DNA from: TPA_inf: Saccharomyces
Lineage: Eukaryota
Direction: 5' to 3'
Assembly: GCA_000146045.2 (NCBI GenBank)
Contig: BK006946.2
Span: forward strand, 512,001-576,000
Length of the DNA stretch: 64,000 bases
The notes beneath the pieces were generated by a model that saw only the letters and a list, made by a program, of their open reading frames with translations, did no database searches and was not told the DNA's origin. A program made the translations under genes and the position numbers. Below, piece by piece: positions 2,456-60,955 of the stretch (positions are counted from its first letter, which is position 1; each line of letters starts with the position of its first letter).

Positions 2456-5287
2456 ATGGATGCAGGTTTATCGACCATGGCAACAAGAAACGGTCAGTCT
2501 TCTGCTAGAGTTAAATTGAGAAATAACCTCTTGAATAATGATATAGGAAATATTGACATTAGGGATGAAACACCTATTTCAAGGAACGGGAATGACAGCA
2601 ATATTAACATCCAGCCTTCTTCCGTGCCGCAGCAGCAGCAGCAGCAGCAGCAATACTACCGTAATGGCATGAATGAGGCTCCAATACAAGCGCCACTTCA
2701 ACAACGTCAAATTCCCATGCAGAATTATTCACAACAGCAACGCCAGCAACAACAGTATAATTTTGAGTATTCCAATCCACATATGAATGAGATTCCCCTC
2801 ATGCAGCATAACTTCACCAAACCATCACTAAGCAATAATCGCGATAATGTTAATGGTAAGAAAGCTTCCTCATTTACCCAGAGCTCATTTTCCAATTTTT
2901 TCAAACATAAGCATCAATTTGGGAAGTCAAAGAAAAACACTAAGGGGACAGGAGGTGGTGGAGATGGTGATGATGACGATGAGGTTATCTTGGATGATTC
3001 TGCAAACTCCGACCTAACATTCAATGACATTCAGACCTTCGGTCACAAGGGCGGTGACAAATATGGATATGGTGGTGATTCCACTCCTATCATTCCAACA
3101 TTGGTGACTAAAGACCGCGGCAATATGAGTAATACTGAGTATAGGAAGTACATTACTAATCAAAGGAAAACCGCAATGAATGCCATGGCTAAACAAACTA
3201 AAAATGGTACATTAGCCTCGTTGCCTCCGAGAGCAATGTCTTTGCAAAGTTTCCCGAATGGTAATCCTTTAATGCAAGCACCCACTCCTCATCCTAGATT
3301 TCAACCGAATAAAATGGTGAGCGCTAATTATTCGAGATCAAATTCGTTGATGAGTGGACCTCCCGGACAATTTCGACAGCCGCAGCAACAAAGAATGCTA
3401 CCGATGAACAACTACAACAATCACCCAGGTCAATTCCAGAATACCCCACCAGTAATGCCCTCTGGACAACAGCCACCTCAGCAACCACGTACTCTGTCAT
3501 TAACTAATGGCCCAAGATATTCACCCCAAAATCCTCGGCCATTCGCAGGTCATCAGCAGATATCACAAAGACAACAACAACAACAACAACAACTTCAACT
3601 TCATCCAATGTCTGAAGGCTATCGGACAATGTCTCTACAAAGTCAGAACGTTCCCCAAGGGTTTAATCCATGGTCACCAAATGACAACGATCGTAAAGCT
3701 GTGTCCATGAAACAGCCAATCAGTCAATCGTCAATTTCCTCAAAGAATAATTCAGCTTATTCAATACCGAACGTACAAAACAACTCCCTGACTACATTCT
3801 CTCCGTCATCTCCTACTGATGCTACAGCAATGCCTAACTCTACAAAACAAGGATCTTCACCACTAAAAAAACAAGTGAACATTGATCAACCTATTGAAAA
3901 CAAGGGAAAACTGAATGTTTTGCAATTATCCACTCCTCAACAAAACGAGTTAAAGGAAAAAGAAAGGAAGCTAGCTGAAATGGAAAAATCTTTACGTGAG
4001 AGAGAAGCACTAGTAGAAGAAAAAGAAAAGGAAAGAGCTGAGAAAAATACTGAAGCAAATGAAGAGGAGGAAATTTCACATGAATCAGACGATTTAAATT
4101 TAAGACCTGCGAGTGCGCTAGAGACTGGTTTAAAAGATCTTAAATTGGAAAGTGAAAGTGCAGTCGCCAATAGAGCGTCCTTGTCGACTTTCTCATCCAC
4201 ATTTAGTGATTCTCCCTCCAAGCAAAGAATCATCAATACCAGAACAGGTATGTATAAGCTAGAAAACTCTACTGATATCAATGAATACGTGACCGCACAA
4301 GAATTCCCCTCTCCCGGAAAGTATAACTCAAATTCGGATAATGGCGAAATGAATACAACGAACGAGGTCGATTTTGATTTCAATACTAGTAAAAGGGCTT
4401 CTTTGTTACAATCCATACCGGAAAGAGATCCCAAAAGAAATGTCTCAGATGCTACCATTAAGCGACGTGAATCCGATGGCAATGGCAGGAGACTAAGTAA
4501 TGTCAACATATCCATGAACCAGGAAAACATCAACAATGATACTTTTCTATATAAAAAAAATAATCGCGATGGTCATTTATCAGCAGTTTCTCATATGTCC
4601 AGCTCTTCCCGTAGATCGTTCATCTCCAATACGCTGCCGTTGAATATTGATTCCGCCTCAGAATCTGATAATTTTGTACCGCATATGGATGGTTCACCCT
4701 CCAAAACAAAATCAGCCCCAGTTAGCTACGATAAGGATGGCATGAATGCTTCAGAAGAAGACTTCAGTTTTGATAATACTTTAGCCAAACCGTATGAACC
4801 GTTATATGCTAGGAGAGGAGACATAACTTCCGCCGGATCAACTAGTGGAGAAGATAGCTCTCAGCCAAAGATGATAACAATATCTGGTGAGCAATTGAAT
4901 TTGATAACAGAAAACAAAGAATTAATGAATGAGTTGACACTGGTGTCTACAGAATTAGCAGAATCGATAAAAAGGGAAACTGAATTAGAAGAAAGAATAC
5001 GGCTGTATGAAACCAATAATTCAGCACCATCTTTTGACGATTCTTCGAGTGTGTCTTTTTCTGACTTTGAAAAGGAACTGAGAAAAAAATCCAGTAAAAT
5101 TGTGCAATTGATCCAGCAATTAAATGACGAGAGATTAAAGAGATTCATTGCGGAGGAGCAGTTATTACTCCAAGAAAATGGCACCAAACCAAGTTCTATG
5201 GAACTAGTAGGAAGAATTGAAAACTTGAATAAACTTATTGATGAGAGAGATTCAGAAATTGAAATGCTTAAAGGACGTTTACAGTAG
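2456..5287 (+). CDS. EPO1: 943-aa Q/N/S-rich low-complexity protein with C-terminal coiled-coil; ER-polarisome contact protein Epo1
   Basis: Single 943-aa ORF with polyQ tracts ((CAG)n at ~2630-2656, (CAA)n at ~3571-3594), an acidic/coiled-coil segment (LKEKERKLAEMEKSLREREALVEEKEKERAEK) and C-terminal heptad repeats. Length matches YMR124W. Confidence 0.75.
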   Translation: MDAGLSTMATRNGQSSARVKLRNNLLNNDIGNIDIRDETPISRNGNDSNINIQPSSVPQQQQQQQQYYRNGMNEAPIQAPLQQRQIPMQNYSQQQRQQQQYNFEYSNPHMNEIPLMQHNFTKPSLSNNRDNVNGKKASSFTQSSFSNFFKHKHQFGKSKKNTKGTGGGGDGDDDDEVILDDSANSDLTFNDIQTFGHKGGDKYGYGGDSTPIIPTLVTKDRGNMSNTEYRKYITNQRKTAMNAMAKQTKNGTLASLPPRAMSLQSFPNGNPLMQAPTPHPRFQPNKMVSANYSRSNSLMSGPPGQFRQPQQQRMLPMNNYNNHPGQFQNTPPVMPSGQQPPQQPRTLSLTNGPRYSPQNPRPFAGHQQISQRQQQQQQQLQLHPMSEGYRTMSLQSQNVPQGFNPWSPNDNDRKAVSMKQPISQSSISSKNNSAYSIPNVQNNSLTTFSPSSPTDATAMPNSTKQGSSPLKKQVNIDQPIENKGKLNVLQLSTPQQNELKEKERKLAEMEKSLREREALVEEKEKERAEKNTEANEEEEISHESDDLNLRPASALETGLKDLKLESESAVANRASLSTFSSTFSDSPSKQRIINTRTGMYKLENSTDINEYVTAQEFPSPGKYNSNSDNGEMNTTNEVDFDFNTSKRASLLQSIPERDPKRNVSDATIKRRESDGNGRRLSNVNISMNQENINNDTFLYKKNNRDGHLSAVSHMSSSSRRSFISNTLPLNIDSASESDNFVPHMDGSPSKTKSAPVSYDKDGMNASEEDFSFDNTLAKPYEPLYARRGDITSAGSTSGEDSSQPKMITISGEQLNLITENKELMNELTLVSTELAESIKRETELEERIRLYETNNSAPSFDDSSSVSFSDFEKELRKKSSKIVQLIQQLNDERLKRFIAEEQLLLQENGTKPSSMELVGRIENLNKLIDERDSEIEMLKGRLQ

Positions 5288-5538: not shown

Positions 5539-8446
5539 ATGTTTAATAGAAAAAGAAGAGGAGGTATGTTTTAAAACCAATGTTTTCCAGAAGTTTCGTT
5601 CTAGAGTGTGTATATCAAGACCAATTAGGATGGTATTTCCATTTTTTGTCAGTTAGTACGGTGTGACAGAAAAGTGTACTTTTGTGGCACAGAGAAGTGG
5701 AGAAACGGTACACGTAGAATACATAACGGCAAGTAACCTCTCTTATTTTACTCTCCATCTTTACTTTGTTTTACATTCCTAGGATTATTAGGTTAGCTTG
5801 GTTTTACAAAAACTCAATTATTCAGTTTCATTCAAATTACTAACATACCCAACTTTGACTACCTTGCATATGATTTTACCGTTAGACTTCGATGAAGATG
5901 AAAATTACCGTGATTTTAGGCCTCGCATGCCTAAAAGACAGAGAATCCCACCTGTTGTACAACTGTGTAAAGAAATGATGCCCGATATTCGCACTATTGG
6001 TGAATCTGTTAAAGCTTTTGAAGATGATATCAAATTCTTGAGTGAAGCTATAATGAATGAGTATGGCCATGAGGACTACTTTAATAATGCTTTACTGAGC
6101 ACTTTAAACGCTGTTGTTGTGGAGCAACCACAGAAGCAAGCTGCTATCGCTCTCTTAACCATGGTTGTTAATTCGAAAAATAATGTTGCCGGAAAGAGTA
6201 TTATCAATTACTTCTTCGAAGAATTACAAAAATGGTGCAAGCAAACATATAATGATGAATTCAAGAGTACGTCAAATGAAACTGGGCCATGGAACAAGAT
6301 CAAGTTAATCCTGAGATTTTTATCCATTCTATCGCCCATGTTTTTAGTTGATGAACTAATCAATATCTACAAGAGCTTATTTGAATTGAGTATCGAATTA
6401 AACAATCTGGATCCAGGTAACAGAGTTCCTTTATCTGAAGCAATTTACACCAATACATTATTAAATATCCCGTATTTGTTCTTTTTTAATAGGAATAATG
6501 ACGGTTTGAGGACAAAAGTGGAGGAGTTACTTGCATACGTTGAACAAAACTATCTAGTTAAAACAACGGATATAAACCTATTAAGAGAATACAATGGTGA
6601 ACCTCCATATGAAATGGTAGAACTTGTCCGAGTCGTATTACCAAACGTCAAGAAGGCGCTAATCAATAACTTGGAACAGCTGAATGAATTATTTCCTGAT
6701 TGGAATCATTTATTAACTCCCCAAACCGGTGATGAAGGGTTCAATGACGCTTTAACCCTTCCATCAGTAGATGATCTAAAGTCTTTCGTGCGCTTGAATA
6801 AAAACTTTGGTTCAGTTGATAGCATGTGGAAGACACCAAGGTATGCTTTTCATGTTTACTTGCCAAACTCCGCTGGTAATTTCGAAACAGTTGTACCAAT
6901 CAGCACTTATGCTGGTCAATTATTCAACGATATCATTATTGATCTGGTGGAAAGTTTAGAATTCAATAGAAAGGAAGTAGCTAGACAAGTGATAACTTTG
7001 GATCTTTTTTTCAAAGCAGGTATATTTACAGAACCTGGTGAATCTATTGCCCAATTAATTGCCACTTATGAAGAGAACCCATTGGCTCCTACATTTAAGA
7101 TAGAAGATTTGGCTATTGAAACCATTTTGGGACTTATTTTTAAATTACCTAGTGTTTCCCAGCCTTTTGCATACTTTTACACTTTATTGGTGGATATTTG
7201 TCAAAATTCTCCAAAAGCAATTGCTCCTGTCTTTGGTAGAGCCTTTAGGTTTTTTTATAGTCATTTGGATTCATTAGATTTTGAACTAAAATTAAGATAT
7301 TTGGACTGGTTTTCAATTCAAATGAGCAACTTTAATTTTTCTTGGAAGTGGAATGAATGGGAAGACGATTCGATCAAATTTGGCAAGTATTTTTATAATC
7401 CAAAGGTAAATTTTGCTAAAAATTTGATTCAAAAAGAACTACGATTGACCTCTAACTTTTCAGAAGTAGAGGACAGCCTACCACAAGAATTCACGAAATA
7501 TTTGGATACTTCTTACATTCCAAGAGATCAACTGATTAACTACTATCAATCATTATTCACCGGTTATACGGTAGAAGAAGATTCCGTTAGAAAAAATGAT
7601 CTATATTTTAGACAAGAAGGTGTACCTATGGAAAACACAGTCCGTAAAATTTTAGATTATACCCACAAAGCAAACAATTCTAGGGAAGTTACTGAATTAG
7701 AAAGTATTCTAGGTGAGTTAAAGAATGAGTATGGTTCCATAATTTCCGACTTTAACAGATTTGTTATCATATTGTTAGTCCAGGCCGTTACAGACTCTGG
7801 TAGTAGATCTTTATCACATGCTAATAAATATATTAATGATTTAAAAGAAGATCTCAAAACCATATTTGCGAAGATTGAATTGGATATCGAGACAAAAGAG
7901 TATATCATAATTGAAGCCGTCCTAACATTTTGGAACGCCAACCCTCAGACAGGTTTCTTAGTAGCAGATGCATTCAAATATGCAGGTTTACTTACTTCCA
8001 GAACCATTTTTACATTTATATTTAACGAAACTGGTTTGAAGAATAATGGTTTGATTGAAGCTACAGCAATTGAAGCGGTCTTTAGAAATTTATCTCAACA
8101 AATCTCGGAAGAGAACGAAAGTGGAAATAATTTTGAGTTCGTTTTCGAAAGATTATGTACCATCGCCAACAGTACTATAGACTTACTAGATGTCAATGCT
8201 GATGAAGATATTGAGATACCTAAAGTCAACGGGGAAATGGACATCGACGATATTGAAGATGATAAACTGGATTTGAAATGGAAATATTTTACAGTGATTG
8301 GGTTTATTAAAAGTATATTAAGAAGGTATTCCCACGAATATCGTGAGTTAGCAGACAAATTCATTGCCAACATTGATAACGCTATTCCACACGAATCCAC
8401 TAGGAGAACAATTTCGAATTGGATTCAAGAAACAAAGGAAGTTTAA
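5539..8446 (+). CDS. STO1: Nuclear cap-binding complex large subunit (CBP80), spliced: exon1 5539..5563 (25 nt), intron 5564..5885, exon2 5886..8446; 861 aa
   Basis: ATG TTT AAT AGA AAA AGA AGA GGA G followed by GTATGT at 5564. TACTAAC at 5838-5844 and 3' AG at 5884-5885. Exon 2 then reads DFDEDENYRDF... in the frame of the 882-aa track ORF. 25 + 2561 nt = 862 codons. MIF4G-type helical repeat protein matching CBP80. Confidence 0.9.
5564..5885 (+). other. STO1 spliceosomal intron (322 nt)
   Basis: 5' GTATGT, branchpoint TACTAAC at 5838-5844, 3' TTAG|AC at 5885/5886. Confidence 0.85.
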
Positions 8447-24206: not shown

Positions 24207-25609
24207 ATGTACGAGTACTGCTCAGTTGTAATAAAGAAATACTCCAAGTATACAATTCCCTCCTTCGCTCCAAATGGTTTTCAATCAATGCTTGAGCCTC
24301 CTCAGATAGACAAGTGGCAACACCTTTCCGCTAACTGCACTCTCCAATTTCGGGTTCTTCTAATGGACTCTAGACAAATTCTGATCAATGTGGTTCTCAA
24401 TAATTCAACACTTCTCGAAAATATTCGCCTGCCGCTGGGGGATAATCAAGATTTAATACAATTTTCATGTAAAAGCCCCATAATCTCTTGTAAATATATC
24501 TCCGAAGAATTCGGACCCAGAATGTTAAGGAGGTTTCAGATGAATTTGCCAAATGACGTTGAGTTCAACAGGACTGTAGTTTCTTTAAAGAACCTTAATT
24601 TTGTTTTAAGGACAGCTAGGACATCAATAGCCCAGAGTACAATAACAAGCCAGGTGCAAGGCAATAATAACGGTACAAAGGTCTGTTTCACAGAAGGTCC
24701 AAAAGTTAGTAGCTACACAAATCCGAACACGCAATTTCAAACTCAAAACATGATTATGGATTTCAGTCAACGTTATCAGGAAGAATCTGAAAGAGAGTCA
24801 AATAATCGTTCAAATATAACTTTACCACACGACAGCATTCAAATAGCTCAACAAATATGGCCAAACACGGATTTAAATGTAGTACAATCTTCACAAGACC
24901 TCAACACTCCAATGGCTACGCAAACTGTTTTGGGTCGTCCTGAGTCGCTAATTGTACAGCCATTGGAGGTTTCTCAATCTCCACCAAACACTACCAACTG
25001 CCTTCCTAATGCAGAAAACAAAAAGAAAAAAGTCGACACCACTTCTGATTTTACTTCAAGAAAGGAGATTGCTCTGTGTAAAACTGGTTTATTAGAAACT
25101 ATTCATATACCAAAGGAAAGGGAAAGTCAGATGCAAAGCGTCACTGGTTTAGATGCAACACCAACGATTATATGGAGCCCCGGGAAAGACAACACGGCGA
25201 AGAAAAATACCAGTAATAAGAAAAATATTGATGATAAACTAACAAACCCCCAAAAATCTGGAAATACACATACCCCTGATAGAAATAAAGAAGTGCTACC
25301 TAACGGCACACTTAATGAAACGAGGAAAGAAGCATCGCCAAGCGAAGGATTAACGATAAGAGTTAAAAACGTTAATCGGAATGCGTCAAGAAAAATATCT
25401 AAGCGGCTAATCAAGGAAAAGTTGAAAGACGAAGAATTCATGAAATGGGTATGTATGCATTTGCAAGAAACTGAGCTGTTTCCCCCTCTTATCCACTCAT
25501 TTTCTCTGACTTGACAAAGAAATACTAACTAACAACTTTTGCCACTACAAATATGAATGAAAAGGTTAATAAGGTTGAAACGGTTCTCAATAAAATGTTC
25601 GAAAAGTGA
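24207..25609 (+). CDS. REC114: Meiotic DSB-formation protein Rec114, spliced: exon1 24207..25448, intron 25449..25564, exon2 25565..25609; 428 aa
   Basis: The protein begins MYEYCSVVIKKYSKY. GTATGT at 25449 follows ...EEFMKW. TACTAAC at 25523-25529 and 3' AG at 25563-64. The 45-nt last exon encodes VNKVETVLNKMFEK*. 414 + 14 = 428 aa equals the YMR133W length. Confidence 0.85.
25449..25564 (+). other. REC114 3'-proximal intron (116 nt)
   Basis: GTATGT ... TACTAAC ... AAAAG| consensus signals; the downstream exon restores the frame and gives the expected total length. Confidence 0.8.
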
Positions 25610-39927: not shown

Positions 39928-40903
39928 ATGTCAGCTGTCCCAAGTGTTCAAGTATGTTTTCAGTTCTGCAGAATGATGTTTGATAGTATCGATAATGGAG
40001 TGAGATCAAGAGAAAAAAAATGAATATGTCAGCCAACCAAGTTCTGAGTAGGCAGTAAATGAGTACGCATAGTGTATTTATCCAAAGGAAAGAATTGTTA
40101 TTTTTACAAGCCGAATTGAGATCCAATTAGGCAATGTTTTGGGGAGAGTATTTTGACAAGATTGGTTAAACTACTACGGTCAGTTCCGTAACCAGTACGA
40201 TTGTACACATAAGGAAACAACTGTAAAGATAAACAATAAGGGCTTCCAATGCCATTGTAAGATATCATATTCCTAAACAAAAATGTACAGCGAATATAAA
40301 GCCAGCGTCAGTGTCTTCCTGGAAGGTTGCGCAACTAAAGAAGTTGAAATTAAAATGGCAAGCGCTACATTTTCATCCATTTTCACTCATCAGATGTCCA
40401 AGATTTTCGAAAAATAAATATTCTCATTTTTCTCTCAATGAAATAATTGTTACTAACATTGAATTTCCTCGTAACTAATTGCATTACTTCTTTAGACTTT
40501 TGGTAAGAAGAAATCAGCTACTGCTGTTGCCCATGTCAAGGCCGGTAAGGGTTTGATCAAGGTTAATGGTTCTCCAATCACTTTGGTTGAACCAGAAATC
40601 TTAAGATTCAAGGTTTACGAACCATTATTGTTAGTTGGTTTGGACAAATTCTCCAACATCGATATTAGAGTTAGAGTTACTGGTGGTGGTCATGTTTCCC
40701 AAGTTTACGCCATCAGACAAGCTATTGCTAAAGGTTTAGTTGCTTACCATCAAAAATATGTCGATGAACAATCCAAGAACGAATTGAAGAAGGCTTTCAC
40801 TTCTTACGACAGAACCTTGTTGATTGCTGATTCTAGAAGACCAGAACCAAAGAAATTCGGTGGTAAGGGTGCTCGTTCCAGATTCCAAAAATCTTACCGT
40901 TAA
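39928..40903 (+). CDS. RPS16A: 40S ribosomal protein S16 (uS9), spliced: exon1 39928..39951 (MSAVPSVQ), intron ~39952..40495, exon2 ~40496..40903; 143 aa
   Basis: ATG TCA GCT GTC CCA AGT GTT CAA|GTATGT. Branch TACTAAC at ~40450-40456 and 3' TTTAG|ACTTTTGGTAAGAAG, giving [36 protein letters not shown]... as in the track ORF 40553..40903. Exon 2 boundary is +/-1 nt. Confidence 0.9.
39952..40495 (+). other. RPS16A intron (~544 nt)
   Basis: GTATGT 5' splice site, TACTAAC branch, TTTAG 3' splice site. Confidence 0.85.
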
Positions 40904-45480: not shown

Positions 45481-46524
45481 TTAATTAGCTTCTTGCATGT
45501 GCTCTTTAGCTTCGGCGGCCTTCTCCACGTCGTATTTGAAATCAAAGTAAGATTTTTCGAAATGGTGTAGACGTATGAACCCATCTTCACCACCGGAGGC
45601 ATAACTTGTGCCCTGTGGGCTAATGGCAACTGTGTTCAAGGGACCAAAATGGCCTTGTACTCTGCCGATTTCTTCTTCGAAGATCTTGTGGTAGAACCTA
45701 GCTTCAAACTTACCTTCGTTGGCACTGGTGGTGGTGACATCCTTGGCCTCTTGACCACCACCAAGAATAATGAATTCCTTCAATGGGGTGATTACGGCGG
45801 TGTTTAGAGGACAGTCTGTTTCGTATTTCTTAAGAACTTGTAGAGTCGATACATCGACCAAGAACGAGTTAGTATCTCTGGATGATGTAATAAAGTATGT
45901 TAAATCAGGAGAAAATTGCATGTCACTGATGGACTTTTCGTGCAAATCGATGGAATCCACGTATTCGTAGTTGTTGGACACATCGTATTTGCTGATCTTA
46001 CCGTCTTTATGGCCTGCAATGATGTATTTGCCCTTAGTCGACCATCCAGCCACGGTGGCAGCGTCTAAACCTTCATGAGTGATAATTTTATGGATTGGCT
46101 CTTCGGAGACCTTTGTTAATTCGTGAGTGGCGGAATCTCTTTCAATTTCGTATATGTTAATGGAACCTGGATTTTTCATGACGTTGTCCAAGATAGCTAG
46201 AAAGTAGTTACCGCATGGGGAAAATTCAACTCTTTTAACGGGGACAGGCGATTTCCATGTAGCAACACATTGCCCGTTTGACACATCCCATAATTTGATA
46301 CTGTAATCAGCACTTCCTGTAACACAGTACTTGGTGAAACAGTCGACGTCGATAGACCAAATGGTACCGGTGTGACCATCCAAAGTACCTAATCTTTCAC
46401 CGTTCAACGAATACCAAACACTGGCCGAGCTATCTTTCGAACATGAAAATAGTAAATCACCTTCTTTGTTGTACTTCACTTGAGTTAATGGACGTTCATG
46501 ACCTGTTAATTTGATAGCCTTCAT
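45481..46524 (-). CDS. TIF34: Translation initiation factor eIF3 subunit i (WD40), 347 aa
   Basis: Seven WD repeats (SASVWYS, IKLWDVS, etc.). Starts MKAIKLTGHERPLTQVKYNKEGDLLFSCSKD. 347 aa equals YMR146C. Confidence 0.9.
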   Translation of the reverse strand: MKAIKLTGHERPLTQVKYNKEGDLLFSCSKDSSASVWYSLNGERLGTLDGHTGTIWSIDVDCFTKYCVTGSADYSIKLWDVSNGQCVATWKSPVPVKRVEFSPCGNYFLAILDNVMKNPGSINIYEIERDSATHELTKVSEEPIHKIITHEGLDAATVAGWSTKGKYIIAGHKDGKISKYDVSNNYEYVDSIDLHEKSISDMQFSPDLTYFITSSRDTNSFLVDVSTLQVLKKYETDCPLNTAVITPLKEFIILGGGQEAKDVTTTSANEGKFEARFYHKIFEEEIGRVQGHFGPLNTVAISPQGTSYASGGEDGFIRLHHFEKSYFDFKYDVEKAAEAKEHMQEAN

Positions 46525-46700: not shown

Positions 46701-47198
46701 GAAACTGAAGGTGGCACGCGGGGTAACTGATATATTTCATACGAACAGCGGCTATACAGAAACCCCACTATATTTACAAAGAAATATGCTCTGGAATCTA
46801 CCTACAAGTGCGTGTTAATGAGCTTGAGTCTATAACCATAGTTGTGATGAAAAAGTACTTCTTGCGCGAAAATTCAGAGGATAAGACAACACAACAGAGA
46901 CCCGCTGAATAAGGTTTCTCATCTCAATCAATTACACCGTAGTGTAGGGTTTTATCAGCTCAAGCGAGTTTTTCAACCCTTCCACAATCTTCTCTTTATT
47001 AATAAATATGTTGGAGATATCTCCTGTATGGGTAATATGTATATATGTAAAAAAAAAAAAAGAAAAACAAAAGAACCAAGATCGGGCTACGATGGATAAA
47101 AAAAAAAGAAAATCTGACTACTCACAAAACTGGTATTCATCTGTACTTTCAAGACGATTAAAATAAAAAGTGACATCTGAAAAACATCCAATACTCCG

Positions 47199-47870
47199 AT
47201 GGCAGCCAGGAATCGTAGAAAGAATAACAAGAAAAAGTCCCTTTTGGTAACGAGTGCCGCTCAAGAAAAGAATGCGACGTATGTGCTCGTTGCAGAGGAA
47301 TTACATAAAAAAACAATCGATCTAAACATGGGTACTGAAACACCTTTAACGGAAAACCACGAGAATCCTATACCAGCGAAAGAATTCAAGCACCAGCAAA
47401 AATTAGAGCCAATAGACGAACATGATGATGGCGAAGACGAATTATCGATAAAATTTAAGTCCATGACAAAAAGCTCGGGGCCTATTACTGAGGCTGAAGT
47501 TCAAAAGCTGCTCCTAAGCTATGCCTTCACAAGTGCTGCAATACAGGAGGACGAAAACGAGAAAGAATCGCGTCACTATCCTATTAAACCGCCTTCGCCA
47601 TCAGCTTCTTCTTTGTCCGCCTATTTTCAATCCTTCGTTGAAAAATGCAAACAGGTTTTCTACAACTTCAGTCTGCAAACAGTAGAAAAATTAAATGCTC
47701 TACAAAATAGCTTGTACGAAGTATTTTGGATTATTTTTATTTATTTAAACTACTGGTTCCCCAATGTGGGTGACTATGTGAGGTATGTCTGTCGTAGCTT
47801 CTCGCGCCATAACGAAATTGCCCAATTACTAACACGTATTTTTACTTACAATATCAACCACCTCCACTAA
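47199..47870 (+). CDS. LDO45: 223-aa ORF forming the N-terminal part of the lipid-droplet protein LDO45 (joined by splicing to YMR148W)
   Basis: 223-aa ORF equal to the YMR147W length. An in-ORF consensus 5' splice site AG|GTATGT lies at 47783-47788. Confidence 0.7.
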   Translation: MAARNRRKNNKKKSLLVTSAAQEKNATYVLVAEELHKKTIDLNMGTETPLTENHENPIPAKEFKHQQKLEPIDEHDDGEDELSIKFKSMTKSSGPITEAEVQKLLLSYAFTSAAIQEDENEKESRHYPIKPPSPSASSLSAYFQSFVEKCKQVFYNFSLQTVEKLNALQNSLYEVFWIIFIYLNYWFPNVGDYVRYVCRSFSRHNEIAQLLTRIFTYNINHLH

Positions 47871-48365
47871 TGAACAGGCACAGTATAGAAAAAAAATCAG
47901 ATCTGCATTTAAAAGGCTGTCTTTTCCAATGATCCTCGACCTTAGCGCGGCTAATCAATTCTACTCACTTTTTTGTTCGCTTTTTTTTTTTTGACCCGTT
48001 GAACCAAGCGGGTTAATTATTTTTTAAGGATAAAGGCTACCACAATCATGAGAGAGACACCATGTACTTGCAGGATTCTGATATTTTTTCTATGCTTGTT
48101 TGCTGACATGCAGATTCGGAGCTGGTTTTGATATTTCATAATCACCTATTTTTGAAGCAATACTTTTGGACAACAAGATAGCATTATTATTAGGATTTCC
48201 CTATCAAAGAGTCATTTCCGTGCACTTCGTGAAAAATCCAGTCAGAAAGTTCAGCAAGCAGTCAAGAATATCTACTTTTGTTTCCAAGAAAAGCCTTACC
48301 TGACAGCGTTCAAAGTCTCCTTTGCCATTGGACTTGTTATTCCGTGTTCCCTACTTTTTTTGATA

Positions 48366-48812
48366 ATGGTTTCTACCGCTACATTTTTCTTTTTTGTTTA
48401 CTTAACCCTTTTCGTAGTGATAGGTTTCTTCTCCTCATTATTCATAATACCCTTATTGGGCATTTCCTTTGTGTTTGCCATTGGCGTGGTATCATTTGGC
48501 TTCTGCAGCAACATGAGTTTCAAAATGGCCCAACTCATTTATGTCCGAGCTGACGCCTTCTTGAAAAAAGTCCTCGACAAAATGGCCCTACAAACACAGC
48601 CGGCACAACTACAGGAACCACAGGAGCCACTTTCCACATTAAGGCCAGTATCTAATCCAACTATTCCAAGCCCATTAAGACAAACGGCGCGCCCTTCTAA
48701 ATTCGTCACCGAAGAAGATGTTATTTTCGAACCTGTTAGTGCTCAAAGCGCCATTGCCCGTTCATTAGAGACTACTGCTAATAAAGCGGGTAATAAGTTC
48801 CAGCTCTCTTAA
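48366..48812 (+). CDS. OSW5: 148-aa lipid-droplet/ER membrane protein LDO16 (Osw5)
   Basis: [46 protein letters not shown]: two TM helices. 148 aa from ATG 48366; the track ORF starts at TTG 48360. The reading frame stays open upstream to 48156. Confidence 0.75.
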
Positions 48813-48995
48813 CCTCGGCAATAAAAAAACATTTTTCGCAAGTTTAGCAGGTCAATAATAATAATATCCTTATAAATTACACTCAGTTTTTTATTACATA
48901 TGGGCCTTTAGTATATACATACGCATATATCTTAGCTTTACCGATCTTCTAATATTGCGGCCTATAACGCATAGACCATAAAAGAAACGGAGCAG

Positions 48996-49856
48996 ATGCA
49001 ATTCTTCAAAACACTTGCGGCCTTGGTGTCGTGCATATCGTTCGTCCTCGCTTACGTGGCACAAGATGTTCATGTATCATTCCCCTCCACCGCAGGAAAG
49101 TCTAGGGTAATGATCGGTAAAGTTGAACCCAGAATAGGAATCGATGAAACTGTTCCGACTACAATCACAGTTGAAGACCCTAACGAGGTGATTCAAGTAA
49201 ATTTCGCCATTGAGTCTACCAACAAACCCTTCCAGAACACCTTATTGATAGGCTTACCTAATAAGAACCTAGAAATGGCTTTTGAACCCGAAATTAAGGA
49301 CAATGGCAAGTTGTCCATGTATAAATACAGGATAGATTTAGCCAAGCTGGATGCTGCTTTGTTGCAAGAGGCTTCCAGATCACCGGAACCAATAAAGGCC
49401 ACTTTGATTCTAGCGTCATCTACCGCCAAACCAAAGGAAAACTTGTTCAGGGAAATTCTGCAACTCAACCTGAACTTCGATGTAGATCACTCAGATTCAT
49501 CTTTAGTTGACAAATTCGGCATTAAGCCAGAAATCCATCATATATTTCATGCCGAGCCAAAGAGAGTTGCCAAACCAATTGCTGTGATTTTTGTTTTAAT
49601 TATCTTCATTACCATTTTATCTTTAATAGTCACCTGGTTGAATTCTTGTGCCGCCGCATTCAATAACATCCCGACCGGTGTCACTGCTGTATATTTCCTA
49701 GGATTCATCGCCACGATTGTTGGGTTTGAAGTTATCTTCGCTAGGTACTACTTGGGTACAAGTATTTTTGAAACTCTATTTTCCTCTTTGTACTTGGGCG
49801 CTCCAGGCTTACTGACATCTACCAAGTTCCTGAGATCTTTTGGTCAAACAATCTAG
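48996..49856 (+). CDS. SWP1: Oligosaccharyltransferase delta subunit (ribophorin II homologue), 286 aa
   Basis: N-terminal signal peptide (MQFFKTLAALVSCISFVLA) and three C-terminal TM helices. 286 aa equals YMR149W. Confidence 0.85.
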   Translation: MQFFKTLAALVSCISFVLAYVAQDVHVSFPSTAGKSRVMIGKVEPRIGIDETVPTTITVEDPNEVIQVNFAIESTNKPFQNTLLIGLPNKNLEMAFEPEIKDNGKLSMYKYRIDLAKLDAALLQEASRSPEPIKATLILASSTAKPKENLFREILQLNLNFDVDHSDSSLVDKFGIKPEIHHIFHAEPKRVAKPIAVIFVLIIFITILSLIVTWLNSCAAAFNNIPTGVTAVYFLGFIATIVGFEVIFARYYLGTSIFETLFSSLYLGAPGLLTSTKFLRSFGQTI

Positions 49857-49873
49857 ATTGTTCTGAAGATCAA

Positions 49874-49877
<4 letters not shown>

Positions 49878-49909
<32 letters not shown>
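49878..49909. repeat. (TA)16 dinucleotide microsatellite in the convergent SWP1/IMP1 3' intergenic region
   Basis: aatatatatatatatatatatatatatatatatatg, read directly from the sequence. Confidence 0.95.
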
Positions 49910-60715: not shown

Positions 60716-60882
60716 ATAGAACAATCACATATGACCGTATTTATACGTGTAATTAAAAAATATACGGACCATGTAAATAATAATATTATAAAATGCAGAC
60801 AATGATGATGAGTATAGTACTACAGTAACGTCCTTCATTCATTACCTTTACTAGCAGTGATAAAAAGTTTTGAAAAAAAATG

Positions 60883-60955
60883 TGCTCCAGGGGAGGTTCG
60901 AACTCTCGACCTTCAGATTATGAGACTGACGCTCTTCCTACTGAGCTACTGAAGC
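60883..60955 (-). tRNA. tM(CAU): Elongator tRNA-Met (anticodon CAU), 73 nt, no intron
   Basis: The minus strand reads GCTTCAGTAGCTCAGTAGGAAGAGCGTCAGTCTCATAATCTGAAGGTCGAGAGTTCGAACCTCCCCTGGAGCA. A-box TAGCTCAGTAGG, anticodon loop CT-CAT-AA, B-box GGTTCGAACC, 7-bp acceptor stem GCTTCAG/CTGGAGC. It matches yeast elongator tRNA-Met. Confidence 0.95.

Follow-up and report, generated by a model that had tools for sequence, protein, structure and literature searches.

In a group of yeast introns, stems downstream of the branch site reduce the effective distance to the 3’ splice site and conceal cryptic AGs (Meyer et al. 2011; Rangan et al. 2025). In the terminal introns of FES1 and HOP2, splicing removes the stop codon and alters the C-terminus (Schreiber 2015). 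LDO45 resembles these genes, as its intron overlaps the annotated stop and splicing therefore swaps the C-terminal tail. It differs from them in that the new tail is an entire downstream gene with its own promoter, and as a result two proteins share a C-terminus.

The LDO45/LDO16 pair (YMR147W / YMR148W-OSW5) has been described in S288C (Miura 2006; Schreiber 2015; Eisenberg-Bord 2018; Teixeira 2018; SGD R64-3-1). Evidence for the splice dates back to 2006, in the form of cDNA and RNA-seq, and is found further in two JCB papers of 2018, in SGD R64-3-1 and in UniProt P40218. Ldo45 and Ldo16 are seipin partners with roles in lipid-droplet identity and vacuole contact, and Ldo45 is treated in the literature as the yeast LDAF1 homologue. 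When compared to Promethin/LDAF1 (TMEM159), the N-terminal half of Ldo45 has no counterpart. The Pfam Promethin model (PF16015) matches residues 222-317 weakly, at 28.4 bits against a gathering cut-off of 27, and Osw5 (PF17062) scores 88.4 bits.

Here we analyse this locus within the window, a stretch of 64,000 nt from S. cerevisiae chromosome XIII, where the chromosome position equals the window coordinate plus 512000; all features given below lie on the plus strand. The splice between YMR147W and YMR148W that makes Ldo45 is genuine and was already known, and locus, proteins and intron (chrXIII 559783-560157) do not differ from those published. As such, the gene arrangement, already annotated and functionally characterised, holds nothing new in itself. 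What this follow-up adds is a correction of the junction to 47782|48158 and the flagging of a branch point that seems never to have been mapped. Only the structural reading, consisting of a branch site and a predicted RNA rod, may be new.

Results

Transcripts that start roughly 20-90 nt upstream of 47199 are spliced from AG|GTATGT at 47783 to AAG| at 48157, fusing 194 codons of YMR147W, via a 70-codon extension, to the complete YMR148W as the 412-aa Ldo45, while transcripts initiating within the intron would yield the 148-aa Ldo16. Exon 1 (47199-47782; 584 nt, phase 2) begins at the ATG shared by LDO45 and YMR147W at 47199, and comprises codons 1-194 plus two nucleotides of codon 195, which is split by the donor. 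Eight public cDNA contigs (Logan; L008-L015) match it as far as 47782 at 100% identity, and carry an exact 375-nt deletion, again with 100% identity. This GT-AG intron (47783-48157) corresponds to the junction 559783-560157 known from published RNA-seq and RT-PCR, for which a upf1-delta strain gave 644 reads. It includes the last 29 codons and the stop (TAA, 47868-70) of the old YMR147W ORF, as well as the region that must contain the LDO16 promoter. The preliminary description, made from the letters of the window, had placed the donor at 47783-47788, inside the YMR147W frame and about 30 codons ahead of its stop, which is exact.

The 3’ splice site is the AAG at 48155-48157 (GAAG|C, with the AG at 48156-57), as given by both the cDNA contigs and the published junctions. 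It is the first AG past the in-frame TGA (48153-48155) that closes the YMR148W frame upstream, and this stop abuts the acceptor AG. An acceptor at this position sets the intron at 375 nt and the product at 412 aa. While AAG departs from the canonical YAG of S. cerevisiae, it is a less common yet accepted yeast 3’ splice site, and reads CAG in S. arboricola. The exon 2 extension (48158-48365) encodes, together with the two nucleotides from exon 1, the 70 residues specific to Ldo45 (195-264), and is followed by the LDO16/YMR148W/OSW5 CDS (48366-48812; 148 aa plus a stop at 48810-12) that forms the shared C-terminus. In an exact-sequence look-up, the spliced 412-aa translation is identical to NP_013867.2, DAA10043.2 and UniRef100_P40218, and the translation of 48366-48812 to NP_013868.1, the 148-aa Ldo16, which is read in the same frame as Ldo45. 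Published cDNA sequencing likewise gave 412 aa (194 + 70 + 148), a peptide from the Ldo45 extension has been detected, and Ldo16 levels are unchanged in ldo45-delta. The CDS coordinates of SGD R64-3-1 (559199-559780, 560156-560812) are offset by 2 nt from the GT-AG boundaries; AG occurs at each of the two junctions, so the mRNA comes out the same.

The fusion of the first 194 codons of YMR147W to YMR148W as Ldo45, and the start of Ldo16 at the ATG at 48366, had been proposed beforehand and match the literature, and the YMR148W frame is indeed open upstream to 48156. The acceptor itself, however, had been overlooked in favour of the AGs at 48180-81 and 48192-93. These are in frame (404 and 400 aa), and each is preceded by a pyrimidine-containing context. 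As the major site they are already refuted by the published 412-aa protein, the extension peptide, and the fact that 48157, and not 48181 or 48193, is where the intron ends in eight of eight cDNA contigs and in every published junction; the likelihood that either is the acceptor is practically nil. Accordingly, the expected product of about 43-45 kDa becomes one of 412 aa and a calculated 46.7 kDa. Neither the 404- and 400-aa products nor those of the short introns discussed below (212, 210 and 229 aa) have a match in a collection of 15 billion proteins. Two 293-aa proteins (P0002, P0003) were considered as read-through variants and rejected; both are S288C-like with the two in-frame TGAs read as W, most probably because of the genetic code applied by the gene caller.

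The donor GTATGT by itself is unremarkable in the window, with 34 occurrences against 26 expected, but GTATGT followed by TACTAAC 35-65 nt on occurs once, against an expectation of 0.04. The two canonical intron motifs are present, GUAUGU at 47783-88 and UACUAAC at 47827-47833. Within Saccharomyces, AGGTATGT at the donor and TTACTAACA at the UACUAAC box are both invariant in 9/9 sequences, the latter between poorly conserved flanks, and the acceptor AG|CAATA is conserved in 8/8. The same splice maintains the frame in seven Saccharomyces species, the frame of the exon 2 extension is kept and conserved in orthologues, and splicing at this locus has been observed in S. mikatae and S. bayanus. The S. 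kudriavzevii copy, from the hybrid VIN7, has an exon 1 that is 1 nt shorter with a broken frame, and served for the intron alignment only. Further afield, N. castellii, Z. mrakii and L. fantastica also carry GTATGT, in each case at this phase-2 position.

Taken at face value, these motifs would suit a much shorter intron: GTATGT, TACTAAC and a CAG 45 nt past the branch A look textbook, and the UAG at 47886-88 is invariant. The main splice could then join to the CAG ending at 47877 (95 nt) or the UAG ending at 47888 (106 nt), giving a frameshifted, NMD-sensitive mRNA, with the 375-nt splice being minor. This we regard as very improbable. Junctions from the 47783 donor to 559877, 559883 or 559888 are absent among those listed for upf1-delta, the 212-, 210- and 229-aa products lack a protein match, N-terminally tagged YMR147W shows the full fusion band alone, and the AGs in question are predicted to be paired. 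The preliminary description had likewise judged a TACTAAC intron of about 95 nt unlikely to be productive; of the nearby AGs it listed, the one at 47877 exists, and that at 47885 does not (the actual AGs are at 47876-77, 47882-83 and 47887-88).

So where is the branch point? The intron has only one canonical box, the UACUAAC at 47827-33, which occupies intron positions 45-51 and would have its branch A at 47832. Its spacing from the donor is 44-65 nt across Saccharomyces, N. castellii, Z. mrakii and L. fantastica. In Lachancea, a 109-nt zone free of AG runs from UACUAAC to the acceptor (P = 0.002). On the basis of this conservation, the donor-proximal UACUAAC is probably the real branch point, rather than the TGCTGAC that had been favoured when TACTAAC was set aside, a ranking that was probably the wrong way round. 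The TGCTGAC motif does exist, at 48101-48107 instead of 48102, as does a TACTCAC near 47963 (47962-68). As a branch site TGCTGAC was rejected: the aligned branch base is G in 6/7 other species, S. mikatae having an A there (TGTTGAA), and the AGs 7 and 15 nt downstream lead into in-frame stops. Its CUG (48103-05) is instead predicted to pair with the first downstream CAG (47875-77), in helix 3.

The difficulty with the UACUAAC box is its distance to the acceptor, which is 325 nt linearly and thus far outside the 11-60 nt usual in yeast. That norm is reached only by a predicted effective distance of 19-54 nt, or with a degenerate site close to the acceptor. Such a branch-like heptamer, TAATCAC, is located at 48139-48145, at a normal distance of 13 nt from the acceptor, and might be the productive branch, leaving UACUAAC to act otherwise, for example as a decoy or in the early recruitment of BBP/Mud2. 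We consider this unlikely, though it is the most serious of the alternatives. Several species have a motif of this kind 11-13 nt ahead of the AG, among them S. eubayanus with a perfect TACTAAC 11 nt away and S. uvarum with TACTCAC. Furthermore, in the minimum-energy helix of S. cerevisiae the linker from 5’ splice site via stem to branch would be about 77 nt, which falls within the 42-85 nt range that defines zipper stems. However, the heptamer is degenerate in most species (TACTCAC, AACTCAC, TACTTAT): it departs from the consensus at two positions in S. cerevisiae and S. paradoxus and can hardly be made out in S. mikatae and S. arboricola, while the distal box is invariant. Yeast branch-site recognition is strict, which counts against a degenerate heptamer. 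Moreover, inspection by eye of the Z. mrakii and N. castellii sequences showed nothing similar close to the acceptor, and the AG-free zone of Lachancea begins at the distal box.

In the literature accessible to us, we found no experimental branch-point or lariat map for this intron. Neither Roy 2023 nor Rangan 2025 mentions the gene in its main text; the latter lists the intron as OSW5, and reports no DMS-guided structure for it. In Talkish 2019 the branch point was only guessed by a heuristic, with a different guess in each species.

If UACUAAC is the branch site, folding of the sequence behind it may bring the acceptor near. The 325 nt from TACTAAC to the acceptor are predicted to fold with z = -5.6 (also -5.1/-6.1), compared to a mean of 0.12 and a minimum of -2.82 for 79 control windows in the same stretch; the structure predicted between branch site and 3’ splice site is unusually stable and, as in downstream-stem introns, pairs the intervening AGs and brings the effective distance into the normal range. 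The predicted long-range rod spans 47856-48127, with consensus helices H1-H8 and two apical hairpins. Its core is an inverted repeat whose 20-nt 5’ arm (47882-47901), holding the invariant UAG at 47886-88, is 90% complementary to the 3’ arm (48077-48096) with which it pairs. The RNAalifold consensus has 61 pairs, with 93% of cells paired against 36-50% in slid controls. Compensatory changes affect 6/61 pairs, and helix 4 holds four covarying pairs. Support from covariation is modest, with a score of 0.210 against 0.188 that was reached by 4/500 shuffles, on a sample of eight closely related sequences from which the structure itself was derived. Basal helices hold 73 G-U cells against 15 A-C cells. 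Folded alone, each Saccharomyces orthologue gives a z between -1.8 and -5.6, and the rod is predicted in all eight species. The unpaired linkers total 50-54 nt in 8/8, with intron lengths of 371-409 nt. In the predicted fold the first CAG and the UAG are paired, giving an effective distance to the acceptor of 19 nt, and in some species one competitor AG is left accessible at a short effective distance. An Rfam search of the intron returned no family match, the sole hit being snR32 on the opposite strand (E = 0.75). Z. mrakii is predicted to form a rod from unrelated sequence, with z = -5.7.

It should be noted that the rod overlaps conserved DNA blocks that are possible LDO16 promoter elements. 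The self-complementarity could thus reflect a constraint on the DNA without any functional RNA structure, the distant acceptor being chosen in some other way. In line with this, deletion of the YMR147W ORF leaves Ldo16 expressed from its own promoter, the apical blocks (TTAGCGCGGCTAAT at 47942-55, a palindrome at 47993-48014 and TTTTTTAAGGATAAAGGCTACCACAAT at 48020-46) are conserved without covariation, and the minus strand folds well too (z = -3.4). Conversely, folding is better for the plus than for the minus strand, the basal helices carry compensatory and G-U changes, linker lengths are constant while the rod interior varies, and the Z. mrakii rod is equally stable despite its unrelated sequence. 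Taken together, we find a purely DNA-level constraint improbable, somewhat more so than branching at the proximal heptamer.

Discussion

The explanation that we consider best, and hold to be fairly probable, is that of an LDO45/LDO16 locus with its branch at UACUAAC 47827-33 and a rod that brings the acceptor near, where the branch point and the rod are what we infer, unlike the junction, which is observed. The branch would form at the invariant box, with the donor a mere 50 nt away and the acceptor at a distance of 325 nt. Some 270 nt of the pre-mRNA (47856-48127) would then zip into a rod, pairing and concealing the nearby CAG, CAG and UAG along with most of the remaining AGs. Between branch point and acceptor this would leave about 23 + 30 unpaired nucleotides, and the AAG at 48157 would be the first AG left free within a normal effective distance. 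Only the LDO45 pre-mRNA would include both rod arms.

A fuller version of this reading sets the branch 50 nt past the donor with 325 nt still to go to the acceptor, roughly fivefold the longest distance usual in yeast, and holds that this is enabled by an evolutionarily maintained rod of about 270 nt that loops out the LDO16 promoter region and masks some 15 AGs. It would further make the donor-proximal architecture ancient, in view of the AG-free zone in Lachancea, the independent rod in Zygotorulaspora and a hairpin in Naumovozyma. Towards this we only lean, slightly less firmly than towards the explanation as a whole. Compared to downstream-stem introns, LDO45 would differ greatly in scale, spanning 325 nt linearly where 11-60 nt is usual and folding about 270 nt into a rod, and the looped-out segment would in addition be the promoter region of the shorter isoform.

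If UACUAAC is the branch site, LDO45 would be the most extreme yeast case of structure-assisted 3’ splice-site choice, and would thereby offer a natural test, at the extreme, of how 3’ splice sites are found by the yeast spliceosome. This would be of interest to splicing specialists and would change no concept. It would also mean that a single segment of DNA serves both as a promoter and, once transcribed, as an RNA splicing scaffold.

Junction and product of the LDO45 intron

The ORFs called around the intron are a TIF34-like ORF on the minus strand (45481-46524), a 223-aa ORF (47199-47870), a 148-aa ORF (ATG at 48366, stop at 48812) and a SWP1-like ORF (48996-49856). These neighbours, and an offset of 512000 that reconciles the window with published chrXIII coordinates, identify the locus as YMR147W/YMR148W (LDO45/LDO16, OSW5) of S. 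cerevisiae. This arrangement is already known and annotated, is included in a listing of verified bicistronic transcripts, and was also detected by nanopore cDNA sequencing. The sole Rfam or ARAGORN match in the window is a tRNA-Met gene (anticodon CAT; 60882-60955, minus strand).

As the preliminary description stated, a GTATGT donor (47783-47788) lies directly after an AG in the YMR147W frame, splitting codon 195 after its second base and ending an exon 1 of 584 nt, and the YMR148W frame is open 5' of its ATG, back to a TGA at 48153-48155. The first in-frame AG past this TGA is at 48156-48157 (GAAG/C, the slash marking the junction), a site that the preliminary description does not name; with it, the intron is 375 nt and the product 412 aa. 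The acceptors proposed earlier, 48180-48181 and 48192-48193, are indeed in frame and would yield 404 and 400 aa, but cDNA contigs and published junctions place the used site at 48157; the outline was right, and the acceptor wrong. In an exact-sequence look-up, the public protein collection held the 412-aa sequence (NP_013867.2 / UniProt P40218) and none of the 404-aa, 400-aa or short-intron products. The split junction sought from 47782 is present in all eight spliced contigs, assemblies of public sequencing runs that carry an unbroken 1239-nt ORF. Its alignment to the window is split in every case into two blocks at 100% identity, the first running to 47782 and the second starting from 48156; the blocks overlap by 2 nt because AG both precedes the donor and closes the intron. 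Applying the GT-AG rule sets the intron at 47783-48157, with the frame kept. The CDS printed in SGD R64-3-1 (559199-559780, 560156-560812) lies 2 nt off these boundaries, implying an intron at 47781-48155 that starts with AG and ends with GA; since AG is repeated at both junctions, the mRNA is identical.

Published data agree on this junction. RNA-seq gave an intron of 375 nt at chrXIII 559783-560157, with 162 reads, and RT-PCR confirmed it (Schreiber et al. 2015); the identical junction had 644 reads in a upf1-delta strain, with the orthologous junction also given for S. mikatae and S. bayanus (Talkish et al. 2019). The product was described as YMR147W residues 1-194, 70 residues from the YMR148W 'promoter' and all 148 YMR148W residues (Eisenberg-Bord et al. 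2018), or as 412 aa, with the last 29 codons lost, 210 bp upstream of YMR148W included, and a mass-spectrometry peptide found from that upstream segment (Teixeira et al. 2018).

Four of the contigs (L008-L011, window 47148-49905) extend unbroken beyond the 3' end of LDO45/16 and reach about 49830-49905 in SWP1, whereas the remaining four end at 48852. Either transcriptional read-through or the merging of overlapping transcripts during assembly could account for the longer contigs. Furthermore, two 293-aa proteins from short public contigs (P0002 and P0003) have tryptophan at the two in-frame TGAs that precede LDO16 (48129-48131 and 48153-48155). Genuine read-through is improbable here, and these proteins most likely stem from a gene caller using a TGA=Trp code.

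Conservation within and outside Saccharomyces

Orthologous loci were compared from S. paradoxus, S. mikatae, S. kudriavzevii (two sources), S. arboricola, S. uvarum, S. eubayanus and one close relative of S. paradoxus. The donor AGGTATGT is invariant in 9/9 Saccharomyces sequences and the acceptor AG/CAATA in 8/8, and the same splice keeps the frame, giving proteins of 408-423 aa. The exception is the S. kudriavzevii-type copy of the S. cerevisiae x S. kudriavzevii hybrid VIN7 (L019 1372-1975), where exon 1 has 604 nt, versus 605 nt in the near-identical L007, and the spliced frame is broken; either this copy is decaying or its assembly contains an error. The 29 codons that end the YMR147W ORF when it is left unspliced show no conservation of length or of sequence, and a match to Pfam Promethin (residues 222-317; 28.4 bits, cut-off 27) begins within the 70-residue extension.

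Outside the genus, several more yeast homologues have an N-terminal ORF ending in RYV (= AG/GTATGT) at aligned residue 194/195. In L. fantastica, an annotated 185-nt intron matches in residue and phase and carries TACTAAC at its position 65, and in Lachancea the 109 nt between box and acceptor are without any AG (about 6.3 expected from composition, P = 0.002), a classic mark of the interval from branch to acceptor. TACTAAC lies at intron position 45 in Z. mrakii and 49 in N. castellii, the latter with GTATGT at the same codon phase. While N. castellii was scored as without this intron (Hooks et al. 2014), an LDO45-type intron is probably present there but unannotated. At this locus (HE576755.1; L020 2501-3970), GTATGT is found at 3037, with in-frame acceptors and an Osw5 ORF downstream; at the first such acceptor, AAAAAG/CAT, exon 2 would start at 3181.

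Branch point and predicted structure

Our literature search found no experimental branch-point map for the LDO45 intron; the published branch sites come from an explicit heuristic and vary between species (Talkish et al. 2019). The earlier candidate TGCTGAC (48101-48107) fares poorly, as the aligned branch-position base is G in six of the seven other species, S. mikatae alone keeping A (TGTTGAA). The TACTAAC dismissed earlier (47827-47833) was probably dismissed wrongly. Within TTACTAACA (intron positions 44-52), this distal box is invariant (9/9) between otherwise poorly conserved flanks. Taken singly, the 34 GTATGT copies in the window are not remarkable (26 expected), while GTATGT followed by TACTAAC 35-65 nt on occurs once (0.04 expected). 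Further plus-strand pairs of donor and branch signals lie at 5564-5885 and 39952-40495, matching the STO1 and RPS16A introns (chrXIII 517563-517885 and 551951-552495; Rangan et al. 2025), and in 25449-25529 (GTATGT 25449, TACTAAC 25523).

Branching at the distal box would put 325 nt and 15 AGs between the branch A and the acceptor, where most yeast introns have a spacing of 11-60 nt. This segment folds better than its shuffles (z = -5.6; repeat runs -5.1 and -6.1), whereas 79 same-length control windows from the 64 kb average 0.12 (sd 1.07, minimum -2.82); its minus strand reaches -3.4, and orthologues folded singly range from -1.8 to -5.6. The predicted fold is a rod, intact in the centroid, with a 20-nt inverted repeat as core (47882-47901 / 48077-48096). 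RNAalifold on eight sequences gives 61 pairs in 10 helices, with standard pairs in 93.4% of cells versus 36-50% with the partners shifted by 1-3 columns, the consensus being derived from the very sequences counted. G-U outnumbers A-C (73 vs 15 cells), and compensatory changes occur in six pairs, of which the core helix holds four. The covariation score (0.210 vs 0.188 in shuffles, reached by 4/500) is modest among such closely related species.

The outermost consensus helix (47856-47859 / 48124-48127) leaves unpaired linkers of 22-24 and 27-30 nt, summing to 50-54 nt in 8/8 species while intron length spans 371-409 nt, and a Meyer-type calculation puts the used AAG (48155-48157) at an effective distance of 19 nt. 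Early AGs are predicted to be mostly paired (P(unpaired) 0.22 for CAG 47877, 0.34 for CAG 47883, 0.00 for UAG 47888), the first CAG with CUG 48103-48105, inside TGCTGAC. In Z. mrakii, with unrelated intron sequence, the 241 nt from branch to first open acceptor give a comparable predicted rod (z = -5.7), and a predicted hairpin covers the first GAGAG in N. castellii. A competitor AG stays accessible in the folds predicted for some of the species. The intron is listed (as OSW5) without a probing-based structure in a supplementary table (Rangan et al. 2025).

The apex of the predicted rod holds three sequence-invariant blocks: TTAGCGCGGCTAAT (47942-47955), which may resemble a URS1/Ume6-type site, the palindrome GACCCGTT..AGCGGGTT (47993-48014) and TTTTTTAAGGATAAAGGCTACCACAAT (48020-48046). 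These blocks probably act as LDO16 promoter elements. Ldo16 production persists after deletion of the YMR147W ORF (Teixeira et al. 2018).

Could the productive branch site instead be the proximal TAATCAC (48139-48145)? It lies 13 nt from the acceptor, its counterparts are TACTCAC, AACTCAC, TACTTAT and, in S. eubayanus, a perfect TACTAAC, and the rod is compatible with a zipper-stem role for such a site; we nevertheless consider it unlikely. We lean towards branching at the distal box, where the rod would shorten the effective branch-to-acceptor distance and so allow acceptor choice despite the linear spacing. Downstream stems that shorten this distance are a known kind of mechanism, which the proposed acceptor choice resembles, although the scale of the proposed structure is unusual here.
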